Assembly (NCBI GenBank): GCA_047605145.1
Contig: JASGGF010000001.1
Span: 1-45,425 of the forward strand
Length of the DNA stretch: 45,425 nucleotides
From: Thermomicrobiales bacterium
GTDB taxonomy: Bacteria; Chloroflexota; Chloroflexia; Thermomicrobiales; UBA6265
Reading direction: 5' to 3'
Below the pieces are notes generated by a model. It did no database searches. It had not been told where the DNA came from and saw only the letters and a list, made by a program, of their open reading frames with translations. This document shows positions 15,115-31,979 of the stretch, piece by piece. The translations under genes and the position numbers were made by a program. Within the stretch, counting starts at the first letter, position 1. Every line of letters starts with the position of its first letter.

Positions 15115-16020
15115 CTACCCGCTGACGTTCGCGGGGGGCGTGGCGTGCCAGTCCGCCAGCGAGCGCGTGAGCACCGCCAGTGCGGATTCCAGTGAGCGTT
15201 GCCCGCGCTGGCCGGCGCCGGGGTTGAGGCTGGTCAACGTGGTGGCGGCGACTTTCCCGGTGGCGAGGACGGTCTTCATCGCCGTCGTCAACTCGTCGAT
15301 GGTGAGGCCGTTCGCGGCAGGCGTGGAGGCGCTGGGGATGAAGCGTGGATCGAGGACGTCCAGATCGACGTGCAGATAGAGCAAGGCGCTGCGGCGAGCC
15401 AGCCACGAAACGACATCAGAGAAGGAGCGTCCGTCGCGCAGTTCGGCGATGGGGATCACCCGCACATCGGTGCTGCGCAGGAGCTCGGCTTCCTTTTCGT
15501 CCAGATCGCGCGTGCCGGCCACGACCAACCGGTCAGTGGCGATGGGCGCGGCCAGCCCGGCGGCCTCGCGCCAGAGCGGGCCGGCCAACCCGGCGAGGAT
15601 CGCCAGCGGCATGCCGGCGAGGATGCCGCTGTAGGAGGTCTCCGGAGTGTTGAAATCGCCGTGGGCGTCCAGCCAGACGATGCCAATGGGCGCTGAGGCG
15701 CCTGCGGCAGCCTGCAGCCCGGCGACCACGCCGATGGCGGCGGTGTCATCGCCGGCGAGGACGAGGGCGCCATGCTCGGCGTGGCGCGCCTCGGCGACAA
15801 GCCGCGCGGTGTCGGCGCCGAGTTTGCCGATGTTGACGGCGGTGCGGCCCGATTCGCGGTCCGTCTCCGCGAGGGTCGCGGTGGCGCCGGATTGCGGCTC
15901 CAGCCCGGCGTCGCGCAGGCGGTTGACCAGCCCGGCGGCGAGCAATGCGTCAGGCCCGGCGCCAACGCCCTCGGCCCGCTGATCGTAGCGATACGGCACG
16001 CTGATCACGTCCACCAGCAT
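15115..16020 (-). CDS. arginase/agmatinase/formiminoglutamase (ureohydrolase) family protein, divergent
   Basis: WLDAHGDFNTP and HVDLDVLDP manganese-ligand motifs are present. The GGDHS motif reads AGDDT here. Confidence 0.8.
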   Translation of the reverse strand: MLVDVISVPYRYDQRAEGVGAGPDALLAAGLVNRLRDAGLEPQSGATATLAETDRESGRTAVNIGKLGADTARLVAEARHAEHGALVLAGDDTAAIGVVAGLQAAAGASAPIGIVWLDAHGDFNTPETSYSGILAGMPLAILAGLAGPLWREAAGLAAPIATDRLVVAGTRDLDEKEAELLRSTDVRVIPIAELRDGRSFSDVVSWLARRSALLYLHVDLDVLDPRFIPSASTPAANGLTIDELTTAMKTVLATGKVAATTLTSLNPGAGQRGQRSLESALAVLTRSLADWHATPPANVSG

Positions 16021-16161
16021 GGAAACCTCCGCAGCGGCGAAAGCCGGTCACAGTGCACAAAAACGTCGAACAGTGCTCTGGGTGGGGTATACCAGTTTTC
16101 GTGCAGCGCGTGCTAAACCCGCGTTGCAGTTCGCAGCGGTGAAAGGTGTAGCGGCCACGCG

Positions 16162-16689
16162 GTGACGTCGCGCAACGAGAACGGCTCAGCTCCCGGTGGG
16201 AGCCTGCCGCCGGACAATGACCCCGATCAGGAGGATCACTATTCCCTGCTTGGGGTGGCCTATCTGGCCACCAACGCCGAGATCATGCAGGCGTACCGGC
16301 GCACCATGTTGCGCGCGCACCCGGACCGGCAGGCGCCCGAGCGACGGGCGGCGGCGGAGGTGCTGGCCCGCCAGCTGAACGCCGCCTACGCCGTGCTGAG
16401 TGATCCCATCAAGCGTCAGGCCTATGACCGCACGATCAGGCAGCAGGTGGTGCAGGACCAGATCATGCGCCAGTACGTCGGCGGGTTCTACACCGGCGGC
16501 GCGTCCACCCCGCAACCGCCGCCAGCGGCGCCGCGCGAGCCAACCGCCGCCGAGCGCCGGGAGCGCATTGCGGCAGACCGCCGGTCGTGGTTGCTGCTGC
16601 TGGGATTCGCGACGCTGTTTGCCGTGCTGATCATCGCGGTGCTGGTGGTGAGCTCGCTCTTCGAGTCACTGCTGCACGTGTTCCAGTAG
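16162..16689 (+). CDS. J-domain (DnaJ-like) protein with C-terminal transmembrane anchor
   Basis: DHYSLLGV...AYRRTMLRAHPDR carries the HPD motif. A hydrophobic C-terminal segment WLLLLGFATLFAVLIIAVLVV follows. Confidence 0.75.
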   Translation: MTSRNENGSAPGGSLPPDNDPDQEDHYSLLGVAYLATNAEIMQAYRRTMLRAHPDRQAPERRAAAEVLARQLNAAYAVLSDPIKRQAYDRTIRQQVVQDQIMRQYVGGFYTGGASTPQPPPAAPREPTAAERRERIAADRRSWLLLLGFATLFAVLIIAVLVVSSLFESLLHVFQ

Positions 16690-16710
16690 CGCGGGCGGAA
16701 GGCGGGGCGC

Positions 16711-17727: not shown

Positions 17728-19908
17728 CTACTCGCCGTTGGTGACCTGATACGCGGTGTCTCCGACAACCACGATCACCTGTTGCCCGAGCGCAAACGCG
17801 CTCGCCAACTCCGGGTTTGCGGCCAGCAGGTCAAAGTAGGCGTCGCTGGCGAACTCCACCTTCTCCAGCGTCATTGCCTCGATATCGTAGCGGGTATCGG
17901 TCCACACGTCGTCGCGGAGCACAAAGGCGTGGCTGCCGGCGTACCGCAGCACCTCGGCGACCTGCACTTCCTCACCGGACGACGAGTCGAAGATGGCGGT
18001 CGGCGCGGGGGCGGAACGGTCGGCATCCGCCAGCGCCTGCACCTCTTGCGCCTGATCGACGGCGGCGGACCCCACGGACGGCGCGGCGGAGATGCCGGCG
18101 CCGGCGGCATCGGCGGCGCGGCCACGCGCGGCTTCGGAGTGGATGTCATCCTCGGTGACCAGGTAGGAGGTGTAGGGCGTGACGATGCCGTACTCCAGAC
18201 TCAGGTCGATGATGGCGTCCACCAGCTCCGGATTTTCGCCGTTCAGCCGGATCTGATTGATGAGGTAGCCGATCTTGCGCGTGGCCCAGAGGCGGGGCAG
18301 GAAGTCGCTGCCGCCGCTGGCGGCGAAAGTCGCCGGGTAGCTGAACGTGGTCTCCTTGCCGTTGACCTGCCCACTGAGCGTGATTTCGGCCTTTCCACCC
18401 TCGCGGTACGTGCCCAGCGCCACCAGCTGCGACCCGGCGAAGAGGTCAGGCAGCGGCGCGGGGTAGATGTCCTCGGTGGTGACGCCGTCCACAGTCAGGG
18501 AGACATCGGCCAGCACTGGCGCGGTAATGCCGGCGTAGAAGCTGGAGACGGCCTCGTTCAGCGCCTGACCGGGACGCACGTAGGTGGTGCGGCCGTGCTG
18601 CTCGGAGGAAAGCGAATCGAGCAGGATCGTATCGACGTCGTCTCCCACGCCGAAAGCGAAGAGGCGAACGTTCGCGGGCGCGGCGGACTGGATGTTGCTG
18701 ATGATGCGGCTGGTGTCCTGCTCGCCCTCGGTGGCAACGCCGTCCGTCAGGAAGAGCACCATGGTTGGCCGGCCCGGCTCCACCATGTCGAGGGCGTTCA
18801 GCAGCGCGAGGTTGATGTCGGTGCCGCCAGTGGCTTCGAGGCGCTCCACCCACGGCACGGCGTCCGGGGCGTCGGCGGCGGGCAACAGCGAGCGGTCGTA
18901 CTCGCGGGCGCCGGTGCTGAACTCGACGATGTTGAAGCGGTCCTCCGGGTTGAGGTGATCGAGCACGTAGAGGAGCGCTTCGCGCGCCTGCTCGATCTTC
19001 TCGCCCTCCATGCTGCCAGAGGTGTCCAGCACGACGACGACGTCCTTGGCGACGATTTCGGTGTCCTGCGTGATGCCGGGGGCGGCCAGCATCAGGAAGT
19101 AGCCCTGATCGGTGGCGGGGTCGAAGTAACTGACCACGTTCGCGCCGACGGTGTCTGGCGAAACGCTCCAGAAGAGTTCGAAGTCCTGATCGGGGCGGAC
19201 GCCGCTCTCCTCGTAGCCCGCGACGAAGTGGTTGTCGTCCTGCCGGTCAACCGCGATGTCGTGCGACGGCGAGTAGACCGCGCGAAGCGGGTCGCTGGAA
19301 TCGACACTGACGCGAACGCTGACGTTGTCCAGCGCGGTTGTGGTGAACGCCTGCGCGTTGAGCGGGTAACGGTAGTGGTTCAGGCCGTTCTCGGCGGGGA
19401 GGATCTGGCTGTAGGCCAACTCGATCTCGCGGTCCTCGCCGGCCGGGATGGGGAACACGCTGGCCTGAATGGCGCCGGAGCCGACGTACTCCAGCAGCGC
19501 GGGATCGCGCAGATTGCGCACGATCTCGTCGTATATGGAGCGCGCCTCATCCGCATTGAGCAGCTTCGCGGAGATGGGCTCGCCATCGACGGTCATGCTG
19601 AACTCGGAAACCGCGGCGTCTGCCGGCACGGGGAAGATGTACGTGCCTTCGGCCACCCAGTCGTGCGGGTTGTGGAAAACCTGCTTCACGTGGGTGGTGG
19701 CGACCTGATCGGCAATCTCCACATCGACGCGGTGAGAGCGGATCTCCACCTGATCCGCGATCAGGACCGGCTCCGTGCACGGGGCGTCGCAGATGGGCGG
19801 GTCAGTGATGACCACGCCCTGCGCCCGCGCGGTGAGCGAGAGGGTGGGGGTGACGAGGATCGCCACAGCGAGGAGGAAAGTCAGGAAGGGGAACGGTCTG
19901 CGAAGCAT
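17728..19908 (-). CDS. secreted VIT domain + von Willebrand factor type A domain protein
   Basis: Signal peptide MLRRPFPFLTFLLAVAILVTPTLSLTARAQ. VIT-like region (HRVDVEIADQVATTHVKQVFHNP...EFSMTVDGEPI). vWA MIDAS motif VVVVLDTSGSMEG. Track ORF 17728..20409 trimmed to ATG 19908. Confidence 0.85.
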   Translation of the reverse strand: MLRRPFPFLTFLLAVAILVTPTLSLTARAQGVVITDPPICDAPCTEPVLIADQVEIRSHRVDVEIADQVATTHVKQVFHNPHDWVAEGTYIFPVPADAAVSEFSMTVDGEPISAKLLNADEARSIYDEIVRNLRDPALLEYVGSGAIQASVFPIPAGEDREIELAYSQILPAENGLNHYRYPLNAQAFTTTALDNVSVRVSVDSSDPLRAVYSPSHDIAVDRQDDNHFVAGYEESGVRPDQDFELFWSVSPDTVGANVVSYFDPATDQGYFLMLAAPGITQDTEIVAKDVVVVLDTSGSMEGEKIEQAREALLYVLDHLNPEDRFNIVEFSTGAREYDRSLLPAADAPDAVPWVERLEATGGTDINLALLNALDMVEPGRPTMVLFLTDGVATEGEQDTSRIISNIQSAAPANVRLFAFGVGDDVDTILLDSLSSEQHGRTTYVRPGQALNEAVSSFYAGITAPVLADVSLTVDGVTTEDIYPAPLPDLFAGSQLVALGTYREGGKAEITLSGQVNGKETTFSYPATFAASGGSDFLPRLWATRKIGYLINQIRLNGENPELVDAIIDLSLEYGIVTPYTSYLVTEDDIHSEAARGRAADAAGAGISAAPSVGSAAVDQAQEVQALADADRSAPAPTAIFDSSSGEEVQVAEVLRYAGSHAFVLRDDVWTDTRYDIEAMTLEKVEFASDAYFDLLAANPELASAFALGQQVIVVVGDTAYQVTNGE

Positions 19909-20039
19909 ATGCGCCTCCTGTGCCGGCCGCGCTCGCTGGCAGCCGCGTGCACAAAAGACGCGCCCAAACCGCGACGGGTTCCCTTGGCTACGTGCGGAAG
20001 CGGGGCTTCCTGCTGTGCATTCCGGCCGTTGACAGGCGA

Positions 20040-20068
20040 TTTCGCGGCCGATAGCCTCCCGGTAGAGA
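20040..20068 (+). promoter_or_regulatory. candidate sigma70-type promoter for the SBP/amine-oxidase cluster
   Basis: TTGACA (20040..20045), 17-nt spacer, TAGCCT (20063..20068). GGGAG lies 7 nt before ATG 20107. Confidence 0.4.
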
Positions 20069-20106
20069 CGATGAAGACGCCGCCAAAACCAGATAGGGAG
20101 CCTGCC

Positions 20107-21465
20107 ATGCCTGACTTCGGGATGCACACGCGTTGGGTGACCACCTCCGGACTGAACCGCCGCCAGTTGTTGCAGGCTGCCGCTGCCGCCGGGGTGCTGG
20201 CCGGGCTGGGCGGGACGAAGCCGGGCGCCGCGCAGGAGATGACCTACAGCCGCGACTACGACGGCACGACCCTGAACCTGCTGATGGAAGACATTCTGGA
20301 GACGCAGATCATCGAGGGGTTGCTGCCGGAGTTCACGGAGTTGACCGGGATCACCGTCAACTTCGAGAAGGTCGCCTACCCGGTGATGCACGAGAAGCTG
20401 GTGCCGCAACTGGCTGCGGGCGCCGGCAGCGGCTCCTACGACGCGCTGGAGGTGGACTTCTACTGGGTCTACGAGTTCGCGCGCTCGCAGTGGGTGGAAG
20501 ATCTGGGCCCGCGCATCGAAGCGGCGGGCGACCAGATGGACATGGCGAAGTACATCCCGGCGCTGCTCAAGATCGGCTCCGAGGTCGATGGCAAGACGTT
20601 TTACCTGCCGATGTTCCCGTACCCGATGGGCCTGATCTACCGGCAGGATCTACTGGACGACGCGGCGTTCAAGGCGGCCTACGAGGCGAAGGCGGGCGCT
20701 CCACTGGCGCTGCCCGACAGCGTTGAGACGTACGTGACGATGGCGGAGACCGTGTCGTCGCTCGATCAGGGCGTTTACGGCGCGGCGATGCAGGCGCAGC
20801 AGGTCGATCCCATCGTGATGGAGTTCTGTAACTTTCTGTATGGCCTCGGTGGCGCGTTCTACAACGCGGAGATGACCGAGCCAGTGATCAACGACGAGAC
20901 GGGGGTCAAGGCGGCGGAGCTGTACGCGCGCTGCGTGAACTCCGCGGCGCAGCCGGGCGCGGCGGGCGCGGACCTGAACGACACCATGGCGACCTACAGT
21001 CAGGGCAAGGCGTTCACCATGATCTCCTACATGTTCATGCTCTCGGTCTTCAACGACGACGACGCCTCGGTGGTGAAGGACAAGAACACCATCACCACGA
21101 TGCCGGGCGGCCACGGCCTGACCGGTATGTGGAGCTGGGGCATTCCCGTCAGCTCGCCGAACCCGGACGCGGCGTGGGAGTTCCTGAAGTGGGTGGAATC
21201 GCCGGAAGTGGCGATGACGCGGGCGCTGGCCGGCGCGGTGCCAGCGCAGGAAGCGCCGTACGCAAATCAGGAGTTCCTCGACAAGTACCCGTGGATGCCG
21301 CAGGCCAAGGACATGATCGCCTCGGGCGAGGGCTTGCCGGCAGTGACGAAGCAGGCGCAACTCGTGGAGATCATGGGCCGACATCTCAGCGACGTGGTCT
21401 CCGGCGCCAAGACGCCGCAGGAGGGGATGGACGGCGCGGCCGAGGAACTGAAGGAACTCCTGTAG
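20107..21465 (+). CDS. ABC transporter substrate-binding protein, family 1 (sugar/CUT1-type), Tat signal (SBP-1)
   Basis: In-frame ATG inside track ORF 17782..21465. Twin-arginine signal LNRRQLLQAAAAAGVLAG...AAQ. The overall SBP_bac_1-like sequence is paralogous to 24991..26334. Confidence 0.85.
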   Translation: MPDFGMHTRWVTTSGLNRRQLLQAAAAAGVLAGLGGTKPGAAQEMTYSRDYDGTTLNLLMEDILETQIIEGLLPEFTELTGITVNFEKVAYPVMHEKLVPQLAAGAGSGSYDALEVDFYWVYEFARSQWVEDLGPRIEAAGDQMDMAKYIPALLKIGSEVDGKTFYLPMFPYPMGLIYRQDLLDDAAFKAAYEAKAGAPLALPDSVETYVTMAETVSSLDQGVYGAAMQAQQVDPIVMEFCNFLYGLGGAFYNAEMTEPVINDETGVKAAELYARCVNSAAQPGAAGADLNDTMATYSQGKAFTMISYMFMLSVFNDDDASVVKDKNTITTMPGGHGLTGMWSWGIPVSSPNPDAAWEFLKWVESPEVAMTRALAGAVPAQEAPYANQEFLDKYPWMPQAKDMIASGEGLPAVTKQAQLVEIMGRHLSDVVSGAKTPQEGMDGAAEELKELL

Positions 21466-21474
21466 GCGGCGCGG

Positions 21475-21498
21475 CCCGCGCACGAGCGTGTGCGCGGG
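21475..21498 (+). other. intercistronic GC-rich hairpin after SBP-1
   Basis: Stem CCCGCGCAC / GTGCGCGGG (9 bp), 6-nt loop, beginning 10 nt after the stop codon, with no T-run. Confidence 0.5.
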
Positions 21499-21517
21499 AG
21501 ATCGTTCGCCGGGCCAC

Positions 21518-21546
21518 TTGCAATGGTCCATTGCGGGACGTACCGT
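21518..21546 (+). promoter_or_regulatory. candidate internal promoter with overlapping perfect palindrome (possible operator) upstream of the amine oxidase gene
   Basis: TTGCAA (21518..21523), 17-nt spacer, TACCGT (21541..21546). A 15-nt perfect palindrome GCAATGGTCCATTGC at 21520..21534 overlaps the -35 element and spacer. Confidence 0.4.
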
Positions 21547-21597
21547 AGCCGTGACGGCGGAATGTTCGTGATCCGGTCGTGAAAAGGAACAAAGTCC

Positions 21598-23559
21598 ATG
21601 GCTCAGGCAGTCGAGCGTATTGCTCACCCGTTGCAGATTCTCTCGACCGACGAGATTGCGGAGGCGCTCGCGATTCTGAAGGCGAACGCGCCGGGCGGCT
21701 GGGATGACCGGCGCTATCGTTTCGTCGAGGTCTCGCTGAAGGAGCCGGGCAAGGTCGCGCTGGCCGAGGCGGAGGCGGCCGGCCGCGCGGACGAGCTGCC
21801 GCGCGAGGCGCGTGTGGTGCTGATCGACCGGGGCGACCGCGCCACCATCGAGGCGTTCGTCTCGCTGAGCGAGGGCAGCATCCTGAGTTGGGACGTGGTG
21901 GCGGTGGGACAGGCCCCGTTCATCATGGAAGAGATTCTGGCCTGCGAGGAGACGATCCGGAAAGATCCCGAGTTTCAGGCCGCCATGGCCAAACGCGGCA
22001 TCACCGACATGGACCTCGTTTGGGTCGATCCGTGGCCGTTCGGCTTTTACGACGACGAGCCGGAGTACGCGAAGCACCGCCTGACGCGCGGGCTGGTCTG
22101 GGCGCGCGCCAACCCGGACGATGACAACGGCTACGCGCACCCCATTGAGAACGTGATCCTCACCTTCGACCTGAACACCGGCGAGATTCTGCGCCTGCAG
22201 GACTTTGGCGTGGTGCACGTGCCGCAGGAAGAGGGGAACTTCGGGCCGGACGACGTCGGAACGCTCCGCACCGACCTCAAGCCGCTGGAGATCATCCAGC
22301 CGGAAGGCCCGAGCTTCGAGGTCGATGGCTATCAGGTGAGCTGGCAGAACTGGCGCTTCCGCGTCGGGTTCACCCCGCGCGAAGGGCTGGTGCTGCATCA
22401 GGTGACGTGGGTCGAGGACGACGGCCGCGAGCGCCCGATCATGTACCGCGCCGGCATGGGCGACATGGTGGTGCCGTACGGCGACCCGAACCCGACGCAC
22501 GTGCGCAAGAACACGTACGACGGCGGCGAGCTGAACTTCGGCGCGCTGATCAACTCGCTGACGCTCGGCTGCGACTGCCTCGGCGAGATCTACTATTTCG
22601 ACGTGGCGCTGGCGGACGCCGACGGCAAGCCGTTCACGCTGCAGAACGCGATCTGCATGCACGAAGAGGACTACGGCGTGCTGTGGCGGCACACCAACTG
22701 GCGCAGCGGCCGCACGGACCTGCGCCGCTCTCGTCGTCTTGTCGTCTCGGTGTTCGCCACCATCGGCAACTACGACTACGGCATCTTCTGGTACTTCTAT
22801 CAGGACGGCACGATCCAGTGCGAGGTGAAGCTGACCGGCATCGTCTCCACCGGCGCGGTGGAGCCGGGCACGAAGCCGACGCACGGCACACTGCTGAACG
22901 CAGACGGCCTCTACGCGCCATTGCACCAGCACTTTTTCAGCTTCCGGCTCGATATGGACGTGGACGGCACGGTCAACAATATCTACGAAGAGCACGGCGA
23001 GTCCGAGATGGACGATTCGCTCTTCCCGCTGCAGTCCTCGTTCCGGACGGTGCGCACGCAGCTGAAGAGTGAGCTGGAAGCGCAGCAGCTGATCGACCCG
23101 CTGCGCGGACGCGTCTGGAAGGTCGTCAATCCGAACAGCCTGAACGCCGCAGGCGACCCGGTGGCGTACCGCCTGCTGCCGATGCACAACGTGGAGGCGA
23201 TGGCCCGCCCGACCTCGAACATCGCGCGGCGCGCCGGCTTCATGATGAAGCACTTCTGGGCCACGCCCTACCGCGACGACGAGAAGACCCCGGCGGGCGA
23301 TTTCCCGGCGCAGCACCCCGGCACCGGCCTGCCGGACTGGACGGCGGCGGACCGCTCGCTGGAAGACACCGACGTGGTCGTGTGGTACACGCTGGGCAGC
23401 CACCACTCGCCGCGCCCGGAGGACTGGCCGGTGATGCCGGTCGGTTACGCCAGCTTCATGCTGCAGCCGCACGGCTTCTTCAACGAGAACCCGGCGCTGA
23501 ACCAGCCGATCCCGAAAGCCCACGGGAACGGCAGCCACTGCTGCTCCAACTGCGACTAG
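21598..23559 (+). CDS. copper-containing primary amine oxidase (topaquinone enzyme), no signal peptide
   Basis: TPQ consensus TIGNYDYG (precursor Tyr codon 22771..22773). Copper His ligands LHQHFF and GSHHSPRPEDWPVMP. 653 aa, colinear with Arthrobacter-type phenylethylamine/histamine oxidases. Confidence 0.92.
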   Translation: MAQAVERIAHPLQILSTDEIAEALAILKANAPGGWDDRRYRFVEVSLKEPGKVALAEAEAAGRADELPREARVVLIDRGDRATIEAFVSLSEGSILSWDVVAVGQAPFIMEEILACEETIRKDPEFQAAMAKRGITDMDLVWVDPWPFGFYDDEPEYAKHRLTRGLVWARANPDDDNGYAHPIENVILTFDLNTGEILRLQDFGVVHVPQEEGNFGPDDVGTLRTDLKPLEIIQPEGPSFEVDGYQVSWQNWRFRVGFTPREGLVLHQVTWVEDDGRERPIMYRAGMGDMVVPYGDPNPTHVRKNTYDGGELNFGALINSLTLGCDCLGEIYYFDVALADADGKPFTLQNAICMHEEDYGVLWRHTNWRSGRTDLRRSRRLVVSVFATIGNYDYGIFWYFYQDGTIQCEVKLTGIVSTGAVEPGTKPTHGTLLNADGLYAPLHQHFFSFRLDMDVDGTVNNIYEEHGESEMDDSLFPLQSSFRTVRTQLKSELEAQQLIDPLRGRVWKVVNPNSLNAAGDPVAYRLLPMHNVEAMARPTSNIARRAGFMMKHFWATPYRDDEKTPAGDFPAQHPGTGLPDWTAADRSLEDTDVVVWYTLGSHHSPRPEDWPVMPVGYASFMLQPHGFFNENPALNQPIPKAHGNGSHCCSNCD

Positions 23560-23586
23560 CGGGTTCCGCGAAGTTGGCACGAAGAC

Positions 23587-23615
23587 GGGACCGGGGCCAA
23601 TGTTGCCCCGGTCCC
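23587..23615 (+). other. GC-rich hairpin after the amine oxidase gene
   Basis: Stem GGGACCGGGGC / GCCCCGGTCCC (11 bp), 7-nt loop, no T-run. Confidence 0.5.
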
Positions 23616-23657
23616 GGCGCGAAGCACGAATTCGCACATCAGAGGGATTGATCACGC

Positions 23658-24512
23658 GTGAGCATGAGCGCAAGCAGCGTGCAGATGGCCGGACCACGGC
23701 GGCGGTTCTCGCTGTCCATGGCGTTGACCCACGTGGTGCTTATCGCCGCCTGCCTGAGCATCGTGCTGCCGGTTCTGTGGACGGCGCGCACCTCGTTCGC
23801 CACCAAGCGGATCGCCTACGACCCCGGCACGCTGATCTTCTCCCCGACGCTCGATAACTACACCACGATCTTCCGCGATGACGCCTTCTTCAAGTACTTC
23901 TGGAACTCGCTGTGGATCGGGATCGCCTCGGCGCTGGTAAGCCTCGCCATTGGTTCGCTGGCGGCGTACTCCATCGCGCGGTTCCGCACCGGGGGCCAGG
24001 TGTTCAGCCTGTCCGTGCTGGGCACGCAGATGTTGCCGCCGGTCGCGCTGATCATCCCGTTCTACCTGCTGGCGCAGCGCTTCGGCCTGCTGGACAAGGG
24101 CTGGGCGCTGGCGCTGATCTTTCTGTCGTTCAACCTGCCGTTCGTCGTCTGGATCCTGATCGGGTTCTTTCAGGGCATCCCGCAGGAGCTGGAGGAAGCG
24201 GCGCTGGTCGATGGCAGCGGGCGGCTGGGGGCGTTCTGGCGGATCATCGTGCCGCTCTCACTGCCGGGGATGTTGGCGGCGGGAGTTTTCGCGTTCGTGC
24301 TCTCGTGGAACGAGTTCCTGTTCGCGCTGGTGCTGACCGGCCGCAACTCGAAGACGCTGCCGGTGGCGCTGGCGGGCCTGATGTCCTCGCAGGGCGACCA
24401 GATCGGCTCGATCTGCGCGGCCACGATGGCGATGATCGCGCCCATCGTGCTGCTGACGTGGGTGATCCAGAAGTACCTCGTCAGTGGGCTGACCTTCGGC
24501 GCGGTCAAGTGA
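23658..24512 (+). CDS. ABC transporter permease, MalG-like (CUT1)
   Basis: Six-TM pattern and EAA loop IPQELEEAALVDGSGRLGAFWRIIVPLSLPG. Confidence 0.88.
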   Translation: MSMSASSVQMAGPRRRFSLSMALTHVVLIAACLSIVLPVLWTARTSFATKRIAYDPGTLIFSPTLDNYTTIFRDDAFFKYFWNSLWIGIASALVSLAIGSLAAYSIARFRTGGQVFSLSVLGTQMLPPVALIIPFYLLAQRFGLLDKGWALALIFLSFNLPFVVWILIGFFQGIPQELEEAALVDGSGRLGAFWRIIVPLSLPGMLAAGVFAFVLSWNEFLFALVLTGRNSKTLPVALAGLMSSQGDQIGSICAATMAMIAPIVLLTWVIQKYLVSGLTFGAVK

Positions 24513-24898
24513 CGGCGCCCGGTGGGGTCGGCCTCGATCACTGCGTAATTCATGTCTCCGACTGGGAGCGCTCCAACGCGTTCTACCGCGATGTCATGGG
24601 CGCGGAGCTTGTAGCCCGGCCGCAGGGCTGGGTCTACCAGTTCGGATCGTTGCGGCTGAATGTGCACGGGCCGGGCGTCGATGCGCACCCGGTCGCCCGG
24701 ATTCCCGTGCCGCCCGGCGGGAGCGACCTGTGCTTCGTGTGGCCGGGCACGGTGGACGAGGCGCTGGCGCACCTCGTGGCGCAGGGAGTGGCCGTGGAAC
24801 TGGGGCCGGTTCCCCGCACTGGCGCACGCGGCGAGGGCGAGAGTGTCTATTTCCGCGACCCTGACGGGTCGCTGCTGGAGTTCATCACGTACCCCTGA
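24509..24898 (+). CDS. VOC (glyoxalase/bleomycin-resistance/dioxygenase) fold protein
   Basis: GTG 24509 overlaps the permease stop (GTGA). LDHCVIHVSDWERSNAFYRDVMG...SVYFRDPDGSLLEF is typical of the VOC superfamily. This is the C-terminal part of track ORF 23912..24898. Confidence 0.8.
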   Translation: MTAPGGVGLDHCVIHVSDWERSNAFYRDVMGAELVARPQGWVYQFGSLRLNVHGPGVDAHPVARIPVPPGGSDLCFVWPGTVDEALAHLVAQGVAVELGPVPRTGARGEGESVYFRDPDGSLLEFITYP

Positions 24899-24990
24899 GA
24901 ACAATCCGCGCAGCGGTGCGAGAATGCACGAACGATTGCGAGTTGCGCACTGGTCAGTGGTGTGGCGCGGAGCGCCAGAAGGGAGTTCCG

Positions 24991-26334
24991 ATGTCGGCGA
25001 ACTTTCGGAGTCTGAACCGGCGGCGGTTGCTGCAAGCGGCGGCCGCGAGCGGCCTCGTGCTGGGCGGAGCGCCGCAATTGCGGCGGCCGGTGCTGGCGCA
25101 GGACGAGATCACCTTCTCCCGTGACTACGACGGCGTGACCCTGAATCTGCTCATGGAGGATCTGCTGGAGACGCAGATCATCGAGGACATGCTGCCTGAG
25201 TTCAAGGAGCTGACGGGCATTACCGTCAACTTCGAGAAGGTCGCGTACGGCGTGATGCACGAGAAGCTCGTGCCGCAGCTGGCGGCGGGGCCGGGCAACG
25301 GCACCTACGACGTGCTCGAAGTCGATTTCTACTGGGTCTACGAGTTCGCGCGGTCGCAGTGGGTGGAGGCGCTGGACGAGCGCATCGCCAACAGCGGCGG
25401 GGCCATCGAGCTGGATCGCTACATCCCGGCGACGCTGGACATCGTGGGCCGCGCGGACGGCAAGGTCTACTATGTGCCGTTCTACGCCTACCCGATGGGC
25501 CTGATCTACCGCGAGGATCTGGCGAACGACGACGCTTTCAAGGCGGACTTCAAGGCGGCGTCCGGAATGGACTTCGCGATGCCGGACAGCGTCGAGAGCT
25601 ACGTGGAACTGGCGAAGGCCATCACCGCGTGGAAGGGCGACGAGCTGTACGGCACGGCGATGACCGGCCAGCAGGTTGACCCGATCACCATGGAGTTCTG
25701 CAACTACCTGTACAGCTGTGGCGGTGACTTTTACACCGCCGATATGAGCGCGCCGGCCATCAACGACGAGAACGGCGTCAAGGCCGCATCGCTCTACGTG
25801 GACGCCATCAACAACGCGGCGCAGGCCGGCGCGGCCAGCGCAAACTATGACGACTCCATCGCGGTGTACTCCGCTGGCAACGCCTTCAGCTCGGTCAGCT
25901 TCATGTGGATGCTGGCCGTGGTCGATGGCGACGAAGAAGCGGCGGCGGCGGGCAAGAACTCCAGCACGATCATGCCGGGCGGCACGGGCCTGAGCGGCGC
26001 GTGGGGCTGGGGCATCCCCATGAGTTCGCCGAACCCGGACGCCGGGTGGGAGTTCGTCCGCTGGGTCGAGTCCCCGGATGTCGCGATGCGGCGGGCGCTG
26101 GCCGGCAGCTTGCCGACGCAGCAGGCGCCCTACGAGAACAAGGAAATCCTCGAGAAGTACCCGTGGCTGCCGCAGGCCGGCGACATGATCACCAGTGGCA
26201 AGGGGTTGCCGGCGATCACGAAGCAGACGCAACTGGTGGAGATCACCGGCCGCCGGCTGGCGGAGGCCGTGGCCGGCAAGCCGGTGCAGGAGGCGATGGA
26301 CGCCGCCGCGCAGGAGCTGGCCGAGCTGTTGTAA
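24991..26334 (+). CDS. ABC transporter substrate-binding protein, family 1, Tat signal (SBP-2, paralog of SBP-1)
   Basis: ATG 24991 with GGGAG upstream. Signal LNRRRLLQAAAASGLVLG...LAQ. Colinear with SBP-1 over its full length. Confidence 0.85.
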   Translation: MSANFRSLNRRRLLQAAAASGLVLGGAPQLRRPVLAQDEITFSRDYDGVTLNLLMEDLLETQIIEDMLPEFKELTGITVNFEKVAYGVMHEKLVPQLAAGPGNGTYDVLEVDFYWVYEFARSQWVEALDERIANSGGAIELDRYIPATLDIVGRADGKVYYVPFYAYPMGLIYREDLANDDAFKADFKAASGMDFAMPDSVESYVELAKAITAWKGDELYGTAMTGQQVDPITMEFCNYLYSCGGDFYTADMSAPAINDENGVKAASLYVDAINNAAQAGAASANYDDSIAVYSAGNAFSSVSFMWMLAVVDGDEEAAAAGKNSSTIMPGGTGLSGAWGWGIPMSSPNPDAGWEFVRWVESPDVAMRRALAGSLPTQQAPYENKEILEKYPWLPQAGDMITSGKGLPAITKQTQLVEITGRRLAEAVAGKPVQEAMDAAAQELAELL

Positions 26335-26350
26335 CCGTTGTCGCATGACT

Positions 26351-26381
26351 GGCGCGGGCTTCTGAACATGGAGCCCGCGCC
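26351..26381 (+). other. intercistronic GC-rich hairpin after SBP-2
   Basis: Stem GGCGCGGGCT / AGCCCGCGCC (10 bp), 11-nt loop, no T-run. Confidence 0.5.
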
Positions 26382-26399
26382 CGTGCGTGGAGCGAACGC

Positions 26400-27341
26400 A
26401 TGGTTCTGGAATCGCCGGGAGCGCCGGCAACGGACAAGCCAGCGGTGAAGCGCGTCGCTTCCGGGACGTGGGCGGCCAGCGGCATGTTCCGCTACGGCAT
26501 GACCTTGCCGACCATTCTGGCCCTCGTGCTGGTGGTCGGGTTCCCGCTGGCGTTCGCGCTGTTTGTCTCCACGCACGCGTATGACCTGACCGAGGGCGGC
26601 ATCGGGGAGTTCACCGGCTGGCAAAACTACGCCCGCACCCTCAGCGACGACCTGTTCGCCAACGCCGCGCGCAACACGGTGGTGCTGGCGATCAGCGTGG
26701 TCATCATCGAGCTGATCGTGGCGCTGGGGCTGTCGCTGCTGCTGAACCAGCCGGGCTTGCGCTTCCGCAACGTCTATCTGGCGATCCTGCTCATCCCGCT
26801 GCTGATCAGCCCCATCGCGGTGGGCATGATCTGGCGGCTGTTGCTCCATCCGGAGCTGGGCGCCATCAACTGGGTTTTCGGGCTGGCGGGCTTGCCGAAA
26901 CAGGAGTGGCTTTCCGGGCAGGCGACCGCCATGCCGACCATCGTCGGGGTGGATGTCTGGCACGAGACATCGCTCATGATCGTGGTGATTCTCGCCGGGC
27001 TGACCGCGCTGCCGCGCGATCCCATCGAGGCGGCGGCGGTGGATGGCGCGACCGGTTGGCAGACGCTGCGCACAATTACGCTGCCGCTCCTGACGCCGGT
27101 GCTGGTGGTGGCGGTGCTGATCCGCCTGATTGCCGCTATGAAAACGTACGACCTGATCTACATCCTGACGCGGGGCGGACCCGGCAGCGCCACCGAGACG
27201 ATTTCGTACCTGATCTGGAAGAACGCCTTCACCTCGCTGGACATGGGGCGTTCGGCGGCGGCGTCATTCCTGCTGCTGCTGGCGATCCTCGGGTTGACGA
27301 TCGTGCTAGTGCGCGTAACCAAGGCCGGCAATCAGCCGTAG
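26400..27341 (+). CDS. ABC transporter permease, MalF-like (CUT1)
   Basis: Six-TM pattern and EAA loop LPRDPIEAAAVDGATGWQTLRTITLPLLTP. Confidence 0.88.
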   Translation: MVLESPGAPATDKPAVKRVASGTWAASGMFRYGMTLPTILALVLVVGFPLAFALFVSTHAYDLTEGGIGEFTGWQNYARTLSDDLFANAARNTVVLAISVVIIELIVALGLSLLLNQPGLRFRNVYLAILLIPLLISPIAVGMIWRLLLHPELGAINWVFGLAGLPKQEWLSGQATAMPTIVGVDVWHETSLMIVVILAGLTALPRDPIEAAAVDGATGWQTLRTITLPLLTPVLVVAVLIRLIAAMKTYDLIYILTRGGPGSATETISYLIWKNAFTSLDMGRSAAASFLLLLAILGLTIVLVRVTKAGNQP

Positions 27342-27413
27342 ACCCGGTGCTACACTCGCGGCACTGACGCTGCGTCAGCCAATCCCCCGCGCGATTCAGG
27401 GAGTTTCCGCACC

Positions 27414-27920
27414 GTGACCAGTGTCGATTCCAATCCAGCTACGTCGCGGGTGATCATCTCCGATGGCCCCGAGCATCGGCCCGTGCAGGGCGAAGAACTG
27501 CTGCAGGCCGACGCGCGCGATGTCAACGCGGCGGTTGTCAACATGGAGCGTGCTGGCGCCGAGCACATCACGGCTGAGCGCGTGATGATGAACAACTCCG
27601 GCGCGCGCTCCATCGACGCGAAGTCGGCGCAGATCGACCGCTCCGGCATCCTCGGGCTGAAGAGCGAAAAGGCGGTGTTCTACAACTCTACAGCGATGGC
27701 AGTGAGCACCGACGAGGCCCGGGTCGTGAATGGCAAGGTGCTGCTGATGCGCGCTGAGGCCGTCAAGGTCGAGGGCGCCGCGAAGATCGGGGTACTCGCT
27801 GGGCCGGCCTGCGAGGCGGTGCGGCCGCTCGTCGATGTGAAGGGCGCGGCCACGTTCGGGGCGGCGCTGGGGCTGGCGTTCGCGTTGCTCGGGGCGATAC
27901 TGCGCCGGGCCAGCCGGTAA
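27414..27920 (+). CDS. hypothetical protein with periodic (possibly beta-solenoid-like) core and C-terminal TM anchor
   Basis: GTG start with GGGAG 10 nt upstream. The coding-like sequence has a repeating pattern of small and hydrophobic residues. C-terminal hydrophobic segment FGAALGLAFALLGAIL followed by RRASR. Confidence 0.5.
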   Translation: MTSVDSNPATSRVIISDGPEHRPVQGEELLQADARDVNAAVVNMERAGAEHITAERVMMNNSGARSIDAKSAQIDRSGILGLKSEKAVFYNSTAMAVSTDEARVVNGKVLLMRAEAVKVEGAAKIGVLAGPACEAVRPLVDVKGAATFGAALGLAFALLGAILRRASR

Positions 27921-27939
27921 CCGGGAGCAGGAGCAAACG

Positions 27940-28284
27940 ATGGGCGCATTGGGCCGGCTGGGTGCATTTGTTGGGGGTGCGTTGCTGGGCGCAGGGATTG
28001 GCGCGGTGGTCGCCACGCTGACAGCACCGCAGAGTGGTGACGACCTGAAGAATGGCGTCGTCAACCGCATTGACCGCGTGCGGGTGGCGGGCGTCGAGGC
28101 GCAGTCGCGGACGGAAGAGGAGATGATCCGCCGCTTCCGGGCCGACACCAACGACGCAGCGGCGCTACGCGACAGCGAGACGCAATCAAAGGTCGAGGCG
28201 GCGCAGGCGCTGGCGGGCATCGCGAAGGCGCGAAGCTCCACCATTTCCGGCATCACCAGCCAGCCAAGGATCACACACTGGTAG
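27940..28284 (+). CDS. YtxH-like membrane-anchored protein
   Basis: N-terminal Gly-rich TM segment followed by LTAPQSGDDLKNG, resembling the YtxH LFAPKSGKE motif. The remainder is predicted helical and charged. Confidence 0.6.
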   Translation: MGALGRLGAFVGGALLGAGIGAVVATLTAPQSGDDLKNGVVNRIDRVRVAGVEAQSRTEEEMIRRFRADTNDAAALRDSETQSKVEAAQALAGIAKARSSTISGITSQPRITHW

Positions 28285-28463
28285 CCAATTTCCCCATCTG
28301 ACTTGCGAAAAAGTGAAACGCCGGGGAAACTCCGTGCAGCGGATGCCGCAGGGCTGGCCGACGCTTGCAGTGAGCGTCTCCGGTACATGACGTGCCAACG
28401 GCGGCACAGGAGGATCAGAAACTCGTGACCGACACGCTGGATCGGCCGAAAACCGGTTTCGAC

Positions 28464-30140
28464 ATGCGGCACAAGAGCCGCGTCATTCTCGATGGCAACG
28501 ACCGCGCCGGCGCTCGCGCCATGCTCAAGGGCACCGGCTTCGACGATGATGACCTGAAGCGGCCGATTATCGGCGTGGCGCACTGCTGGATCGAGACCAT
28601 GCCGTGCAACCTGAACCAGCGCGAGCTGGCGCAGCACGTCAAGGAAGGGATCCGGGCCGCGGGCGGCACGCCACAGGAACTCAACACCATCTCCATCTCC
28701 GACGGTGTGACCATGGGCACCGAGGGTATGAAGTCCTCGCTGATCTCGCGCGAGGTAATCGCCGATTCGGTTGAGCTGGTGGCGCGCGGCCACATGTTCG
28801 ACGCCATGGTGCTGATCGGCGCCTGCGACAAGACGCTGCCGGGTCTGGCGATGGCGCTGGTGCGCCTGAACATCCCGGGCGTGCTGCTGTACGGCGGTTC
28901 GATCATGCCGGGCCACTGGCACGACAAGGAAGTGACGGTTCGCTCCGTCTACGAGGCAATTGGCGCGAACTCTGCCGGCAAGCTTAGCGATGCGGAGCTG
29001 ATCGACCTCGAAAACGTCGCCTGCCCGGGCGCGGGCGCCTGCGGCGGCCAGTACACGGCGAACACGATGGCGATGGCGATGGAGTTCATCGGTCTCTCTC
29101 CGATGGGCTCGGCCTCGGCGCCGGCCGTCGATTCGCGCAAGAACGCGATTGGCAAGGAAGTCGGCACGCAGATCATGGACATCCTGAGCCGGGGCGTGCT
29201 GCCGAAGGATATTCTCACCCGCGAGGCGTTCGAGAACGCTATCGCCGGCGTGGCAGCATCGGGCGGCTCCACCAACAGCGTGCTGCACCTGATCGCGCTG
29301 GCGCGAGAGACGGGCGTCGAACTCGATATTGACGACTTCGATGAGATCTCTCGCCGCACGCCGCTCTTCTGCGACATGATGCCGGGCGGCAAGTACTCTG
29401 CGTTCGACCTCGACCTCGCCGGCGGCACGCCAGTGGTTGCCAAGCGCATGGTGGACGCCGGTCTCGTGCACGGCGACGCCATGACGGTGACTGGGCAGAC
29501 CTTCGCCGAGGCGGCGGCCAACGCCAAGGAGACCCCGGGGCAGGACGTGGTGCACCCGGTCGATGAGCCAATCAAGGAGACCGGCGGCCTCGTGATCCTG
29601 AAGGGCAACATTGCGCCGAACGGCGCGGTGGTCAAGCTCTTCGGGTACGAGCGCGAGCAGCACGTCGGCCCGGCCCGCGTCTTCGACTCCGAGCCGGCCG
29701 CGCACCACGCGGTGCTGGATCGCCAGATCAACCCCGGCGACGTGGTGGTGATCCGCTACGAAGGCCCGGTTGGCGGCCCCGGCATGCAGGAGATGCTGGG
29801 CGTGACGGCCAGCATCGTGGGTCAGGGGCTTGGCGACTCCGTGGCGCTGATCACCGATGGCCGGTTCAGCGGCGCGACCAAGGGCCTGATGATCGGGCAC
29901 ATTGCGCCGGAAGCCGGCGTGGGCGGCCCGCTGGCGGCGATCCGCGAGGGCGACATCATCAAGATCGACACCCCGGCGCGCGCCCTGAATGTCGATCTCA
30001 GCGACGAGGAAATCGCCGAGCGGCTAAAGGATTGGACACCGCGCAAGCCGGAGAACCCGGCAGGCGTGTGGGCCAAGTACGCCAAGCTGGTGCAGCAGGC
30101 GGATCAGGGCGCCATCACGTTGGTGACGTGGGACGACTGA
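28464..30140 (+). CDS. ilvD: dihydroxy-acid dehydratase
   Basis: [31 protein letters not shown] and CDKTLPG motifs. ATG 28464 gives a canonical short-form IlvD N-terminus. Alternative upstream starts are GTG 28425 (AGGAGGA 10 nt upstream) and 28392. Confidence 0.93.
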
Positions 30141-30252: not shown

Positions 30253-31074
30253 TTACCCCGGCAGGTCGCGTTGGTGGAAGACGGCCCAGCCCGCGATGAA
30301 CGCCAGTCCGCCGGTGATGAGCAAGGTGGAGACGGCACGCGGGTCAGCGACGCCGTTGACAAGCGTGGGCGTAGGCGTGAAGTACTCGAAGAGCGAGAGA
30401 AACAGCACGCGCTCCAGCGGCTTCCAGACGCCCGCAAAATAGTCAATGAAGTACGAGATTAGCAGGAGCCCCAGTGACCACCCAACGACCCGCCCGGCGT
30501 TGCTTGCTGCTGCGCTGAAGAGCAATGAAAGCCCGGCGATGGCCCAGAGCAGGGCGAACGTGTCGATGCCGACGGCGACAAGGTGACCAGCCGGGAAGGG
30601 GCCGGGATCGGCGTACGCAAGTCCGGCCAGCATCCCGACCGGCCCCACCACGGACACAATGAGGCAGATAAACGATGCGCCAGCGACGCACGACAGGTAT
30701 ACGGTCGTGCGGGAGATGTCCCGTGAGAGCGGGATCTGCAGCGAGCCACTGGCCATTTCGCCAGCCAGCACGCGGGCGGTGTAGCTGATGACGGCGGCCC
30801 CGGCCATGACGATAAAGATGGGGTGCGTGAAGCCGAGCGAGAGGTAGCCGGGCAAGCCGGTCATAGCGAGGAACTCGGGCCGCGTACGGGCGAACGCCTG
30901 AAAGGCGGGCGGCACGCGCGACATGATCGCGTCCATGGCGCCGGCGCCGCCGAACGAGGCAATCACCAGCGGCTGCACGAACGTGAAGGCGGCGATAGCG
31001 GCGCACAGTGCGGCAAGGCCAGTCAGTCCGCGCCGGATGCCGCGCCACGTCAGGGTCAGGAGTGTCGCGCTCAC
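30253..31074 (-). CDS. ABC-2 type transporter permease
   Basis: 273 aa multi-TM protein. Its GTG start overlaps the stop of the upstream ABC ATPase gene (GTGA). Confidence 0.75.
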   Translation of the reverse strand: MSATLLTLTWRGIRRGLTGLAALCAAIAAFTFVQPLVIASFGGAGAMDAIMSRVPPAFQAFARTRPEFLAMTGLPGYLSLGFTHPIFIVMAGAAVISYTARVLAGEMASGSLQIPLSRDISRTTVYLSCVAGASFICLIVSVVGPVGMLAGLAYADPGPFPAGHLVAVGIDTFALLWAIAGLSLLFSAAASNAGRVVGWSLGLLLISYFIDYFAGVWKPLERVLFLSLFEYFTPTPTLVNGVADPRAVSTLLITGGLAFIAGWAVFHQRDLPG

Positions 31075-31979
31075 CTGGTCGGCCCGGCAGGCTCTGACGG
31101 CGCGTAGAACTCGTGGAAAACCTGCTCCAACGTGGGGCGTGAGATCAGGACGTCCGCGACGTCGCCACGGGCGGCGAGGGCGTGCAGGAGCGGGTGCAGG
31201 TTGCCGCGCACCGTGAGGTGCAAGGTGGTATCGTCGCGCTGCGTCACGCTAACGCCGGGCGCGGTGAGGTCCGAGGGCGCCGCGCCCGCGAACTGCACCT
31301 CGACCATGCGCTGCTGGCGGGCCGTGAGTTCGGAGATGGCGGCTTCCGCGACGATCTTGCCCGCGCGGATGATGGCGACGCGCTGGCAGAGGCGCTCCAC
31401 CTCAGCCAAATCATGCGACGACATGAAGATCGTCGTGCCCTGTTGGCGCAACTCGATGATCACGTCATCGAAGGCCCGCTGCATGAGCGGATCGAGACCA
31501 TCGGTAGGTTCATCCAGAATCAGCAGGCGGGAATTCGTCTGCATGCAGGCTGTCAGCGCCAGTTTCTGCTTCATTCCCTTTGAATAGCCCCGAATGGGCC
31601 GGGCTAACGCCGCCGCGCTCAGCTCCAGCGCCTCCAGCAGGTGGGGTCGCAACGTGGGCGGACGGCGGCTCAAGGTGGCGGCGTAGTCCAGCAGGGACGC
31701 GCCGCTCATATCGGGATAGAGCGTATCAGCGGTGGTGAGAAAGCCAAGTTCGCGGCGGGCTGCCACGCCATCGCGCCAGCAGTCGTGCCCGAACAGGGCG
31801 CTGGTCCCGGCGGTGGGGCGCACGAACCCGAGCAGGGTGCGAATCGTGGTGGTTTTTCCTGCCCCGTTTGGCCCGAGGAACCCGTAGATCTCGCCCTGAC
31901 CCACCGTCAGGGAGATCGCATCCAGCGCCGTCACGGCGCCATAACGCTTGGTCAGGTTACGCACGGCAATGACTTCCAC
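31071..31979 (-). CDS. ABC transporter ATP-binding protein (ABC-2/drug-exporter type)
   Basis: Walker A GPNGAGKTT, signature YSKGMKQKL, Walker B LLILDEPTDGLD. In-frame GTG 31979. The upstream part of track ORF 31071..33356 is an antisense shadow of the dehydrogenase gene. Confidence 0.9.
   Translation of the reverse strand: MEVIAVRNLTKRYGAVTALDAISLTVGQGEIYGFLGPNGAGKTTTIRTLLGFVRPTAGTSALFGHDCWRDGVAARRELGFLTTADTLYPDMSGASLLDYAATLSRRPPTLRPHLLEALELSAAALARPIRGYSKGMKQKLALTACMQTNSRLLILDEPTDGLDPLMQRAFDDVIIELRQQGTTIFMSSHDLAEVERLCQRVAIIRAGKIVAEAAISELTARQQRMVEVQFAGAAPSDLTAPGVSVTQRDDTTLHLTVRGNLHPLLHALAARGDVADVLISRPTLEQVFHEFYAPSEPAGPTR

Follow-up and report, generated by a model that had tools for sequence, protein, structure and literature searches.

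The 45,425 nt stretch of DNA analysed here, referred to as the window, is from a soil bacterium of the order Thermomicrobiales (Chloroflexota) and has a G+C content of ~67%. Between positions 20107 and 27341 it carries six plus-strand genes, which encode two substrate-binding proteins (SBPs) and two permeases of an ATP-binding cassette (ABC) importer, a copper amine oxidase (CuAO) and a protein of the VOC fold. A preliminary description, made from the sequence letters alone, gave the same gene set, order and common direction, and Pfam and NCBIfam profile searches confirm all six families. The set is flanked by a minus-strand VIT/VWA gene (17728 to ~19890) and by ilvD (28392–30140). The genes are as follows.

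20107..21465, + strand: SBP-A, CUT1-type substrate-binding protein with a twin-arginine translocation (Tat) signal, paralogue group A (Pfam SBP_bac_1, SBP_bac_8; TIGR01409)
21598..23559, + strand: CuAO, predicted cytoplasmic topaquinone (TPQ) copper amine oxidase, a primary-amine oxidase (Pfam and NCBIfam above cut-off; best PDB match AGAO)
23658..24512, + strand: PermG, MalG/GlcU/UgpE-type ABC permease (BPD_transp_1; NCBIfam)
24509..24898, + strand: VOC-fold protein of the GLOD5/STM3117-like subgroup, a lineage-restricted accessory (Pfam Glyoxalase; PDB matches)
24991..26334, + strand: SBP-B, Tat-signal CUT1-type substrate-binding protein, paralogue group B (Pfam SBP_bac_1, SBP_bac_8)
26400..27341, + strand: PermF, MalF/UgpA/GlcT-type ABC permease (BPD_transp_1; NCBIfam)

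Successive intergenic gaps are 132, 98, −4, 92 and 65 nt. The negative value reflects the GTGA overlap already described, where the GTG start of the VOC gene overlaps the PermG stop by 4 nt. The SBP-A start is most likely the ATG at 20107 and not the codon at 20040, since orthologues begin with MSDFGM. PermG starts with the GTG at 23658, and this start is kept in the related loci L001 and L090 (loci of relatives are given L numbers).

The CuAO scores 504.8 bits with PF01179 (Cu_amine_oxid; cut-off 27, E = 2e-151), and the N2 and N3 domains are matched as well (PF02728, 51.8 bits; PF02727, 28.7 bits). The NCBIfam primary-amine oxidase model NF008559 gives 870 bits against a cut-off of 651. The best PDB match is the Arthrobacter globiformis enzyme AGAO (PDB 1av4 and others), which aligns end to end (E = 3e-148) and has the same N2, N3 and catalytic domains. 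The alignment places the TPQ tyrosine at Y392 within TIGNYDY, the catalytic base at D308, a conserved tyrosine at Y294 (AGAO Tyr284) and the copper ligands at H443, H445 and H603, all of which AGAO shares. Each is invariant in 53 of 53 members of a clade defined by CuAOs at least 62% identical; these are all from Thermomicrobiales and largely from environmental metagenome assemblies. AGAO is a cytoplasmic enzyme. The window CuAO has no N-terminal extension relative to it, and neither protein has a signal peptide. The alignment thus bears out the intact TPQ motif and histidine ligands and the missing signal peptide reported earlier, and the oxidase is, to judge from its sequence, catalytically intact and cytoplasmic.

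The clade departs from other CuAOs at several positions, some of them at the substrate channel. When the alignment is scanned without bias for residues that reach 90% conservation or more among the 53 clade CuAOs and are shared by no more than 10% of 141 outgroup CuAOs, 12 sites emerge, among them I113, L312, F314 and N367, which are placed in or beside the AGAO channel. Outgroups have Phe at I113 (AGAO Phe105), Tyr or Trp at L312 (AGAO Tyr302) and Asp at N367 (AGAO Asp357). The AGAO channel residues Phe105, Tyr296, Tyr302, Leu358 and Phe407, of which Phe105 and Tyr302 line the channel, are Ile, Thr, Leu, Trp (Met in most of the clade) and Ser, respectively, in the window enzyme; among these differences, the Ile and Leu changes are clade-specific. 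Channel residues of CuAOs vary with the enzyme source and help to accommodate substrate Schiff-base intermediates (review, PMC3382800). The clade-specific substitutions would fit a changed substrate. They do not tell which substrate, because they run from aromatic to aliphatic and are not obviously polar.

The two binding proteins appear to be Tat-exported, as proposed earlier. SBP-A scores 20.1 bits with the Tat-signal model TIGR01409 (cut-off 16.7) and has the motif NRRQLLQ; the twin-arginine motif of SBP-B is NRRRLLQ. In both proteins, and in all 14 orthologues inspected, the RR motif precedes a hydrophobic stretch rich in A and G. SBP-A and SBP-B are paralogues that are 62% identical and differ at 16 group-specific positions, which include a single charge change (N316 in A versus D312 in B). 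Identity within groups is 76–85% for group A and 76–94% for group B.

Sequence and predicted fold alike identify the two SBPs as CUT1 proteins of the carbohydrate/polyol type. An AlphaFold2 model of SBP-A (mean pLDDT 75.7, a moderate confidence) gives 1eu8, 6dtq, 5iai, 4rya and 7ofy as best Foldseek matches in the PDB, and the best PDB sequence matches of SBP-B are 1eu8, 5iai, 5ci5, 6dtq and 4rya. The top 50 Foldseek matches are CUT1-type SBPs (TMq up to 0.76), nearly all of them carbohydrate or polyol binders, the exceptions being entries for a dinucleotide-binding protein (7c0l, 7c0t, 7c0y). No polyamine-type binder is found near the top of the sequence or fold matches. The nearest solved proteins are the trehalose/maltose binder TMBP, MalE3, the polyol binders 5iai and 4rya, and the sulfoquinovosyl-glycerol binder SmoF.

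PermG and PermF both match BPD_transp_1. PermG scores 95 bits with the NCBIfam model GlcU and 86 bits with MalG, and also matches UgpE; PermF scores 124 bits with UgpA, 113 bits with GlcT and 79 bits with MalF. All of these scores are below equivalog cut-offs, and the permeases are therefore family-level relatives only. Orthologues in relatives are 65–92% (PermG) and 67–85% (PermF) identical.

The SBP family is small and isolated, with 75 representative clusters at E ≤ 1e-30 among 1.84 billion proteins. The nearest full-length SBPs outside it are 49% (L115) and 45–46% (L116) identical. L116 has PermG directly upstream of the SBP gene; L115 has the canonical SBP-F-G order, beside Peptidase_M20 and Zn-dependent alcohol dehydrogenase (Zn-ADH) genes. 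The preliminary description took the gene order for a rearrangement peculiar to the locus. This does not hold: G-SBP-F is an inherited trait of the transporter family, being found also in L116. Within the family, group B SBPs lie between PermG and PermF in relatives, with L108 as the sole exception. In L086, the most divergent module, the only SBP is equally distant from groups A and B, and L082 has a single group A SBP, located between the permeases. The module therefore probably began as CuAO-PermG-SBP-PermF, and the SBP gene was duplicated later.

Two complete SBP-F-G sets are present at L115:279-9184, followed by the Peptidase_M20 amidohydrolase and Zn-ADH genes; the locus has no CuAO gene. 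From this context, N-substituted polar compounds may be among the ligands of the wider SBP family.

Linkage of the oxidase to the transporter genes was assessed by comparing the window proteins with 80 genomic loci of CuAO relatives, the contigs of eight CuAO/SBP orthologues and 23 metagenome loci with SBP relatives. An SBP-A-type gene is directly upstream of CuAO in 18 contigs of the clade (window, L001, L002, L081, L084, L085, L087/L098, L089, L090, L091, the P0012 contig, L092–L095, L097, L099 and L111), and the orthologues so placed are 76–85% identical. Every upstream-type SBP-A for which downstream sequence is available is followed by CuAO. A PermG-SBP-PermF block is found downstream of CuAO in most contigs long enough to show it, namely the window, L001, L081, L082/L083, L086, L087, L089/L090 and the P0012 contig. 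The linkage persists in relatives where other genes separate CuAO from PermG: a 180-aa gene (L081), a PIN toxin pair (L086) or 6 kb of other genes (L087).

On the P0012 contig SBP-A, CuAO, PermG, SBP-B and PermF stay together among unrelated genes, with an EngA-type GTPase gene at one end and glycine-cleavage genes at the other. This neighbourhood differs from the usual backbone, which runs from VIT/VWA to ilvD. The occurrence of the five genes there defines the limits of the module and argues that the linkage is selected. The arrangement is more than chance, as it recurs in many independent Thermomicrobiales contigs. The neighbourhood comparison of oxidase orthologues, proposed beforehand as a test, is positive within a Thermomicrobiales clade.

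Large genes that encode NB-ARC/AAA, TPR and GerE domains, similar to MalT/LAL regulators, lie near the module in three relatives (L082:19608-21950, L087:9325-11676 and L091:16889-21368). The L087 gene is directly upstream of PermG and divergent from it. The window has no counterpart of these genes, which are candidate module regulators.

Outside the clade the linkage is rare. The comparison set consists of 76 loci (1.26 Mb) with CuAOs at most 58% identical, from other Thermomicrobiales, Nitrolancea, Dehalococcoidia and many Actinomycetota. Among the 76, L019 alone has a CUT1 SBP and permeases within 10 kb of the CuAO gene. There is no dominant partner among the recurrent neighbours of these distant CuAOs, the largest cluster being an SDR found at 9 of the 76 loci. 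L019 is from a Solirubrobacterales metagenome-assembled genome (CAWEGZ010000020, cluster 2991-16693), and its CuAO is 51% identical. The oxidase gene is flanked on one side by SBP-PermF-PermG in canonical order and by genes for an SDR, a MalK-type ATPase and an aldehyde dehydrogenase, and on the opposite side by genes for a GH4 glycosidase, a GDSL hydrolase, a Zn-ADH and a class-III aminotransferase. The L019 SBP has no tblastn match to the window SBPs at E ≤ 1e-5. This single locus may represent a second, independent invention of a sugar-type importer joined to an amine oxidase.

Taken together, the genes probably constitute a dedicated Thermomicrobiales module for the uptake and cytoplasmic oxidative deamination of a polar primary amine. 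Four observations support this coupling: the linkage is conserved, the module also occurs in a different neighbourhood, the SBP family is isolated, and the oxidase has changed in the same clade. As proposed, the two Tat-exported binding proteins would capture a polar compound with a primary –CH2–NH2 group, or perhaps two close congeners. A single MalF/MalG-type translocon would receive it from them, with energy from an ATPase of MalK/MsiK type whose gene is unlinked; a shared ATPase of this kind is plausible. Many Actinomycetota encode the CUT1 ATPase MsiK away from the transporter genes. The cytoplasmic CuAO would then convert the amine to an aldehyde, NH4+ and H2O2, which would yield nitrogen and a usable carbon skeleton. 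Handling of the aldehyde would be lineage-specific, by a GMC oxidoreductase with or without an SDR in most relatives, and in the window by the GLOD5-like VOC protein that is translationally coupled to PermG.

Several of these elements we infer: the identity of importer ligand and oxidase substrate, the chemistry of the ligand, the role of the VOC protein and the transcription units. It is the SBP family alone that suggests the class of ligand. Amino sugars, amino-polyols and aminoacetone-type compounds are putative substrate classes. A narrower proposal, that the substrate is a carbohydrate-like primary amine with –CH2NH2 on a sugar, polyol or glycoside scaffold and that the CuAO channel has been re-tuned for such compounds, is tentative and may well be wrong.

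The spacers between the genes also bear on the coupling, and have the following features.

20029..20057, + strand: P1, promoter-like element (TTGACA, 17 nt, TAGCCT) upstream of SBP-A; conserved block in the window, L001 and L090
21475..21498, + strand: GC-rich hairpin with a 9-bp perfect stem after SBP-A, no T-run (hairpin scan)
21518..21546, + strand: P2, promoter-like element (TTGCAA, 17 nt, TACCGT) between the first hairpin and CuAO (cross-species alignment)
23586..23616, + strand: GC-rich hairpin with a 12-bp perfect stem after CuAO, no T-run in the window (hairpin scan)
26348..26384, + strand: GC-rich hairpin with 13-nt arms, 92% complementary, after SBP-B, no T-run (hairpin scan)

P1 stands in a spacer that is otherwise diverged in the alignment of the window, L001 and L090. 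It is missed by a consensus scan because its –10 hexamer is weak; that scan, for promoters and terminators, shows nothing above background. At P2, ACTTGCAA and CGTAnCGT are invariant in the same three sequences, with the same 17-nt spacing. P1 and P2 are both putative promoters. The spacer after SBP-A has a stable stem-loop in 8 of 10 folded relatives, with unrelated sequences; the short spacers of L092 and L094 are without one. The position after CuAO is also taken by a hairpin in L001 and L090; it differs in sequence from that of the window and is followed by GGTTTTGC, a T-run, which makes it terminator-like. The hairpin after SBP-B, with the PermF ribosome-binding site directly 3′ to it, is kept as a structure of different sequence in L001, L090, L081, L086, L087 and L088. 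As hairpins recur in most relatives with unrelated sequences, the structure itself appears to be what is kept in the three spacers. E. coli has a stabilizing repetitive extragenic palindromic (REP) hairpin between malE and malF, which the hairpin after SBP-B resembles. A search of positions 19500-28500 for Rfam RNA families found none at E ≤ 0.1. With hairpins after SBP-A, CuAO and SBP-B and with P2 preceding CuAO, the six genes probably form two or three transcription units.

Two further observations concern spacers. A block, GGTGCGAGAATGCACGAACGATTGCGAG, at 24918-24945 between the VOC gene and SBP-B is kept in the window, L001 and L090 in an otherwise variable spacer, and could be an operator or promoter for SBP-B. 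Very long near-perfect palindromes, in which tandem heptamers (GGGTGTC, GGTGATG and GGAGACA types) pair with their complements, follow SBP genes of relatives at L084:9876-10000, L085:9854-10000, L087:3601-3721 and 14219-14397, and L091:11369-11473. Their folding energies range from −46 to −90 kcal/mol, and they look like a lineage-specific family of REP-like elements; the window has none.

Some findings weigh against the proposed uptake and deamination module. The hairpins and promoter-like element around CuAO suggest that it can be transcribed alone. The channel substitutions, aromatic to aliphatic, do not obviously lead toward a polar, sugar-binding pocket. At least one genome has the two halves of the module on separate contigs (L085 and L088), the L003 CuAO stands alone on a 16.7-kb contig, and in L004, which lacks the permeases, CuAO and VOC genes directly adjoin the ilvD backbone. 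As the clade spans a narrow phylogenetic range, part of the conservation could be vertical inheritance. No MalK/MsiK-type ATPase is found in the 45-kb window or in any relative's module, and the window has no recognizable regulator and no aldehyde dehydrogenase.

These findings raise the question of whether CuAO is a passenger in an ordinary sugar or polyol importer, having landed once in an ancestor, followed later by the VOC gene, and been inherited vertically with no substrate in common. The resemblance of the SBPs to carbohydrate and polyol binders only, the bracketing of CuAO by hairpins with a promoter-like element of its own, the genes inserted between CuAO and PermG in relatives, the occurrence of CuAO without permeases in L003 and L004 and the narrowness of the clade would all agree with this. 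However, adjacency of SBP-A and CuAO is kept in 18 of 18 contigs despite many rearrangements elsewhere, and the five-gene core is also found in the different genomic neighbourhood of the P0012 contig. In addition, the SBP family is essentially confined to loci with this CuAO clade, and the oxidase channel is altered specifically in this clade. A passenger origin thus appears unlikely.

The accessory enzymes vary among lineages. The VOC protein matches Pfam Glyoxalase and has 3ey7, 3hnq (STM3117) and 3zw5 (GLOD5) as best PDB matches, but fails the glyoxalase I equivalog TIGR00068 (21 bits against a cut-off of 120). As its nearest relatives (3ey7, STM3117, GLOD5) are functionally uncharacterized, it is assigned to the VOC superfamily only. 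Its gene is present between PermG and SBP-B in the window lineage (the window, L001 and L089/L090) and in L105, and directly after CuAO in L004, and is absent from all other modules. The VOC gene had been described as a module member; it is an accessory of few lineages and not part of the core. A GMC flavoprotein oxidoreductase gene is divergently upstream of SBP-A in L081, L082, L084, L085, L087, L091 and L092–L095, with an SDR gene in addition in L081, L085 and L091; the window has neither a GMC nor an SDR partner gene. The nearest solved relatives of the GMC protein are choline dehydrogenase and oxidase, 5-hydroxymethylfurfural oxidase and alcohol oxidase, enzymes whose oxidizable substrates are primary alcohols or aldehyde hydrates. 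In L082/L083 and L086, a DJ-1/PfpI gene is found close to the module. Among loci with both sides visible, GMC and VOC genes are mutually exclusive, which may reflect only one or two evolutionary events. On a neighbour-joining tree of CuAOs, L004, which has the VOC gene, is placed with L081, which has the GMC gene, and not with the window lineage; a single simple gain therefore does not account for the distribution of the VOC gene.

The presence of GMC genes leads to another possibility, that the ligands of SBP-A and SBP-B share one scaffold and differ in having –CH2NH2 or –CH2OH, and that CuAO and the GMC enzyme convert these to the same aldehyde. Such a pair might be a 6-amino-6-deoxy sugar with its parent sugar, an amino-polyol with the polyol, or pyridoxamine with pyridoxine. 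The two SBPs, paralogues of 62% identity that differ at 16 group-specific positions, would fit such a scheme, as would a divergent GMC gene upstream of SBP-A whose best PDB relatives oxidize primary alcohols. The window, however, keeps both SBPs without a GMC gene, and the vitamin B6 version is not supported by the GMC and SDR comparisons. This convergence of an alcohol and an amine appears distinctly unlikely.

A vitamin B6 route as such, with CuAO acting on pyridoxamine, GMC as pyridoxine 4-oxidase and SDR as pyridoxal 4-dehydrogenase, is not supported, as pyridoxine 4-oxidase is only a mid-rank PDB match of the GMC protein and the SDR scores 178 bits with NF047923 (cut-off 325) and has quinuclidinone reductase as its best PDB match.

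It is quite improbable that an aminoketone or Amadori-type compound is imported, either sugar-like 1-amino-1-deoxy-fructose or one resembling aminoacetone, and oxidized by CuAO to a 2-oxoaldehyde (glucosone, methylglyoxal) that VOC or DJ-1/PfpI proteins detoxify or isomerize. Copper amine oxidases are established to convert aminoacetone to methylglyoxal, the VOC gene is translationally coupled to PermG in the window and directly follows CuAO in L004, and the DJ-1/PfpI genes near the module would also fit. Yet VOC and DJ-1 genes are each found in few lineages only, most relatives have the GMC oxidoreductase in place of VOC, and the VOC protein belongs to the uncharacterized GLOD5/STM3117-like group and is far from the glyoxalase I cut-off.

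Compared with known systems, the proposed module for uptake and deamination combines familiar parts. We know of no report that AGAO is encoded inside a binding-protein transporter locus. The E. coli tynA-feaB system (a periplasmic CuAO, phenylacetaldehyde dehydrogenase and the regulator FeaR) is likewise a route of amine catabolism by a CuAO that needs a downstream aldehyde-handling enzyme. TynA is exported, and its substrate therefore needs no importer. The window CuAO scores 390 bits with the TynA equivalog NF011285, which has a cut-off of 1278, and the window locus lacks the aldehyde dehydrogenase and regulator of tynA-feaB; partners in the module family are instead GMC, SDR or VOC proteins.

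The CUT1 importers (TMBP-MalFGK of T. litoralis, the Agrobacterium polyol SBPs 5iai and 4rya, SmoF) share SBP fold and family with the window proteins (Foldseek TMq 0.69–0.76) and have MalF/MalG-type permeases, although the solved SBPs are only ~18–23% identical to those of the window. The window departs from the CUT1 norm in its G-SBP-F order, the second SBP gene upstream, the Tat signals on both SBPs and the amine oxidase inside the gene set. Paralogous SBPs at one locus with a single permease pair are also known from HisJ and ArgT with HisQMP, but these are of PAAT type and not CUT1. L019 resembles the module in having a CuAO beside CUT1 SBP and permease genes and, as in some relatives of the window, an SDR; it differs in its canonical order and linked MalK-type ATPase, and further in its aldehyde dehydrogenase, GH4 glycosidase, Zn-ADH and class-III aminotransferase.

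Each component of the locus belongs to a known family, and the coupling of a CuAO to a binding-protein importer appears to be the new part. A search of one literature library for CuAOs linked to binding-protein transporters, or for CuAOs in Thermomicrobiales or Chloroflexi, found nothing relevant. The locus is not a new type of system; it offers a clear lead to an oxidase substrate and a CUT1 ligand that would both be new. Physiological substrates of bacterial CuAOs are known for few enzymes and include phenylethylamine, tyramine, methylamine and histamine; to our knowledge, most CUT1 binding proteins have no assigned ligand. With a conserved coupling, the SBP ligand should be the oxidase substrate, and two small soluble SBPs would offer a shortcut to the specificity of the oxidase. 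Should the substrate be an amino sugar, an amino-polyol or an Amadori-type compound, the module would be a new route of nitrogen scavenging in Chloroflexota, and its H2O2-producing enzyme might be of use in biosensing. A carbohydrate-like amine route, if true, would extend the substrate range of bacterial CuAOs beyond aryl-alkyl and simple aliphatic amines and add a new ligand class for CUT1 binding proteins, and the Solirubrobacterales CuAO-CUT1-GH4 cluster (L019) would be a second invention of the same idea. If the coupling is fortuitous, the locus is ordinary.

Other genes of the window do not belong to the module. The preliminary description reported neither an ATPase nor a regulator in the window. 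This stands for a MalK/MsiK-type ATPase and for recognizable regulators, but an ATPase of the ABC-2 exporter type is present. Its ABC_tran domain is within the open reading frame 31071-33356 on the minus strand (real start probably ~32050), which adjoins an ABC2_membrane gene (30253-31074, minus strand). As the missing importer ATPase this gene is ruled out, since it is paired with ABC2_membrane and is syntenic in relatives regardless of the module. The downstream IlvD/Edd gene is ruled out as a sugar-acid dehydratase of the module, as it scores 691 bits with TIGR00110 (cut-off 618) and is a true IlvD; in addition, ilvD remains on the chromosomal backbone where the module sits elsewhere.

Between PermF and ilvD are two small plus-strand genes, at 27450-27920 (a protein of ~156–180 aa with no Pfam match, termed u180) and 27940-28284 (a YtxH-like protein). 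In relatives they always precede ilvD, even in L004, which lacks the importer. As backbone genes that stay in place where the module sits elsewhere, both (27450-28284) are ruled out as module members.

Carbohydrate-related genes elsewhere in the window are unlinked to the module. Regions 125-3657 and 8622-10555 encode a GFO/IDH/MocA oxidoreductase, an MFS transporter, a GH3 glycosidase, a galactokinase-like GHMP kinase and a PIG-L deacetylase. Near the 3′ end of the window are genes for an FGGY kinase, a PMI-like protein and a ribulose-phosphate 3-epimerase.

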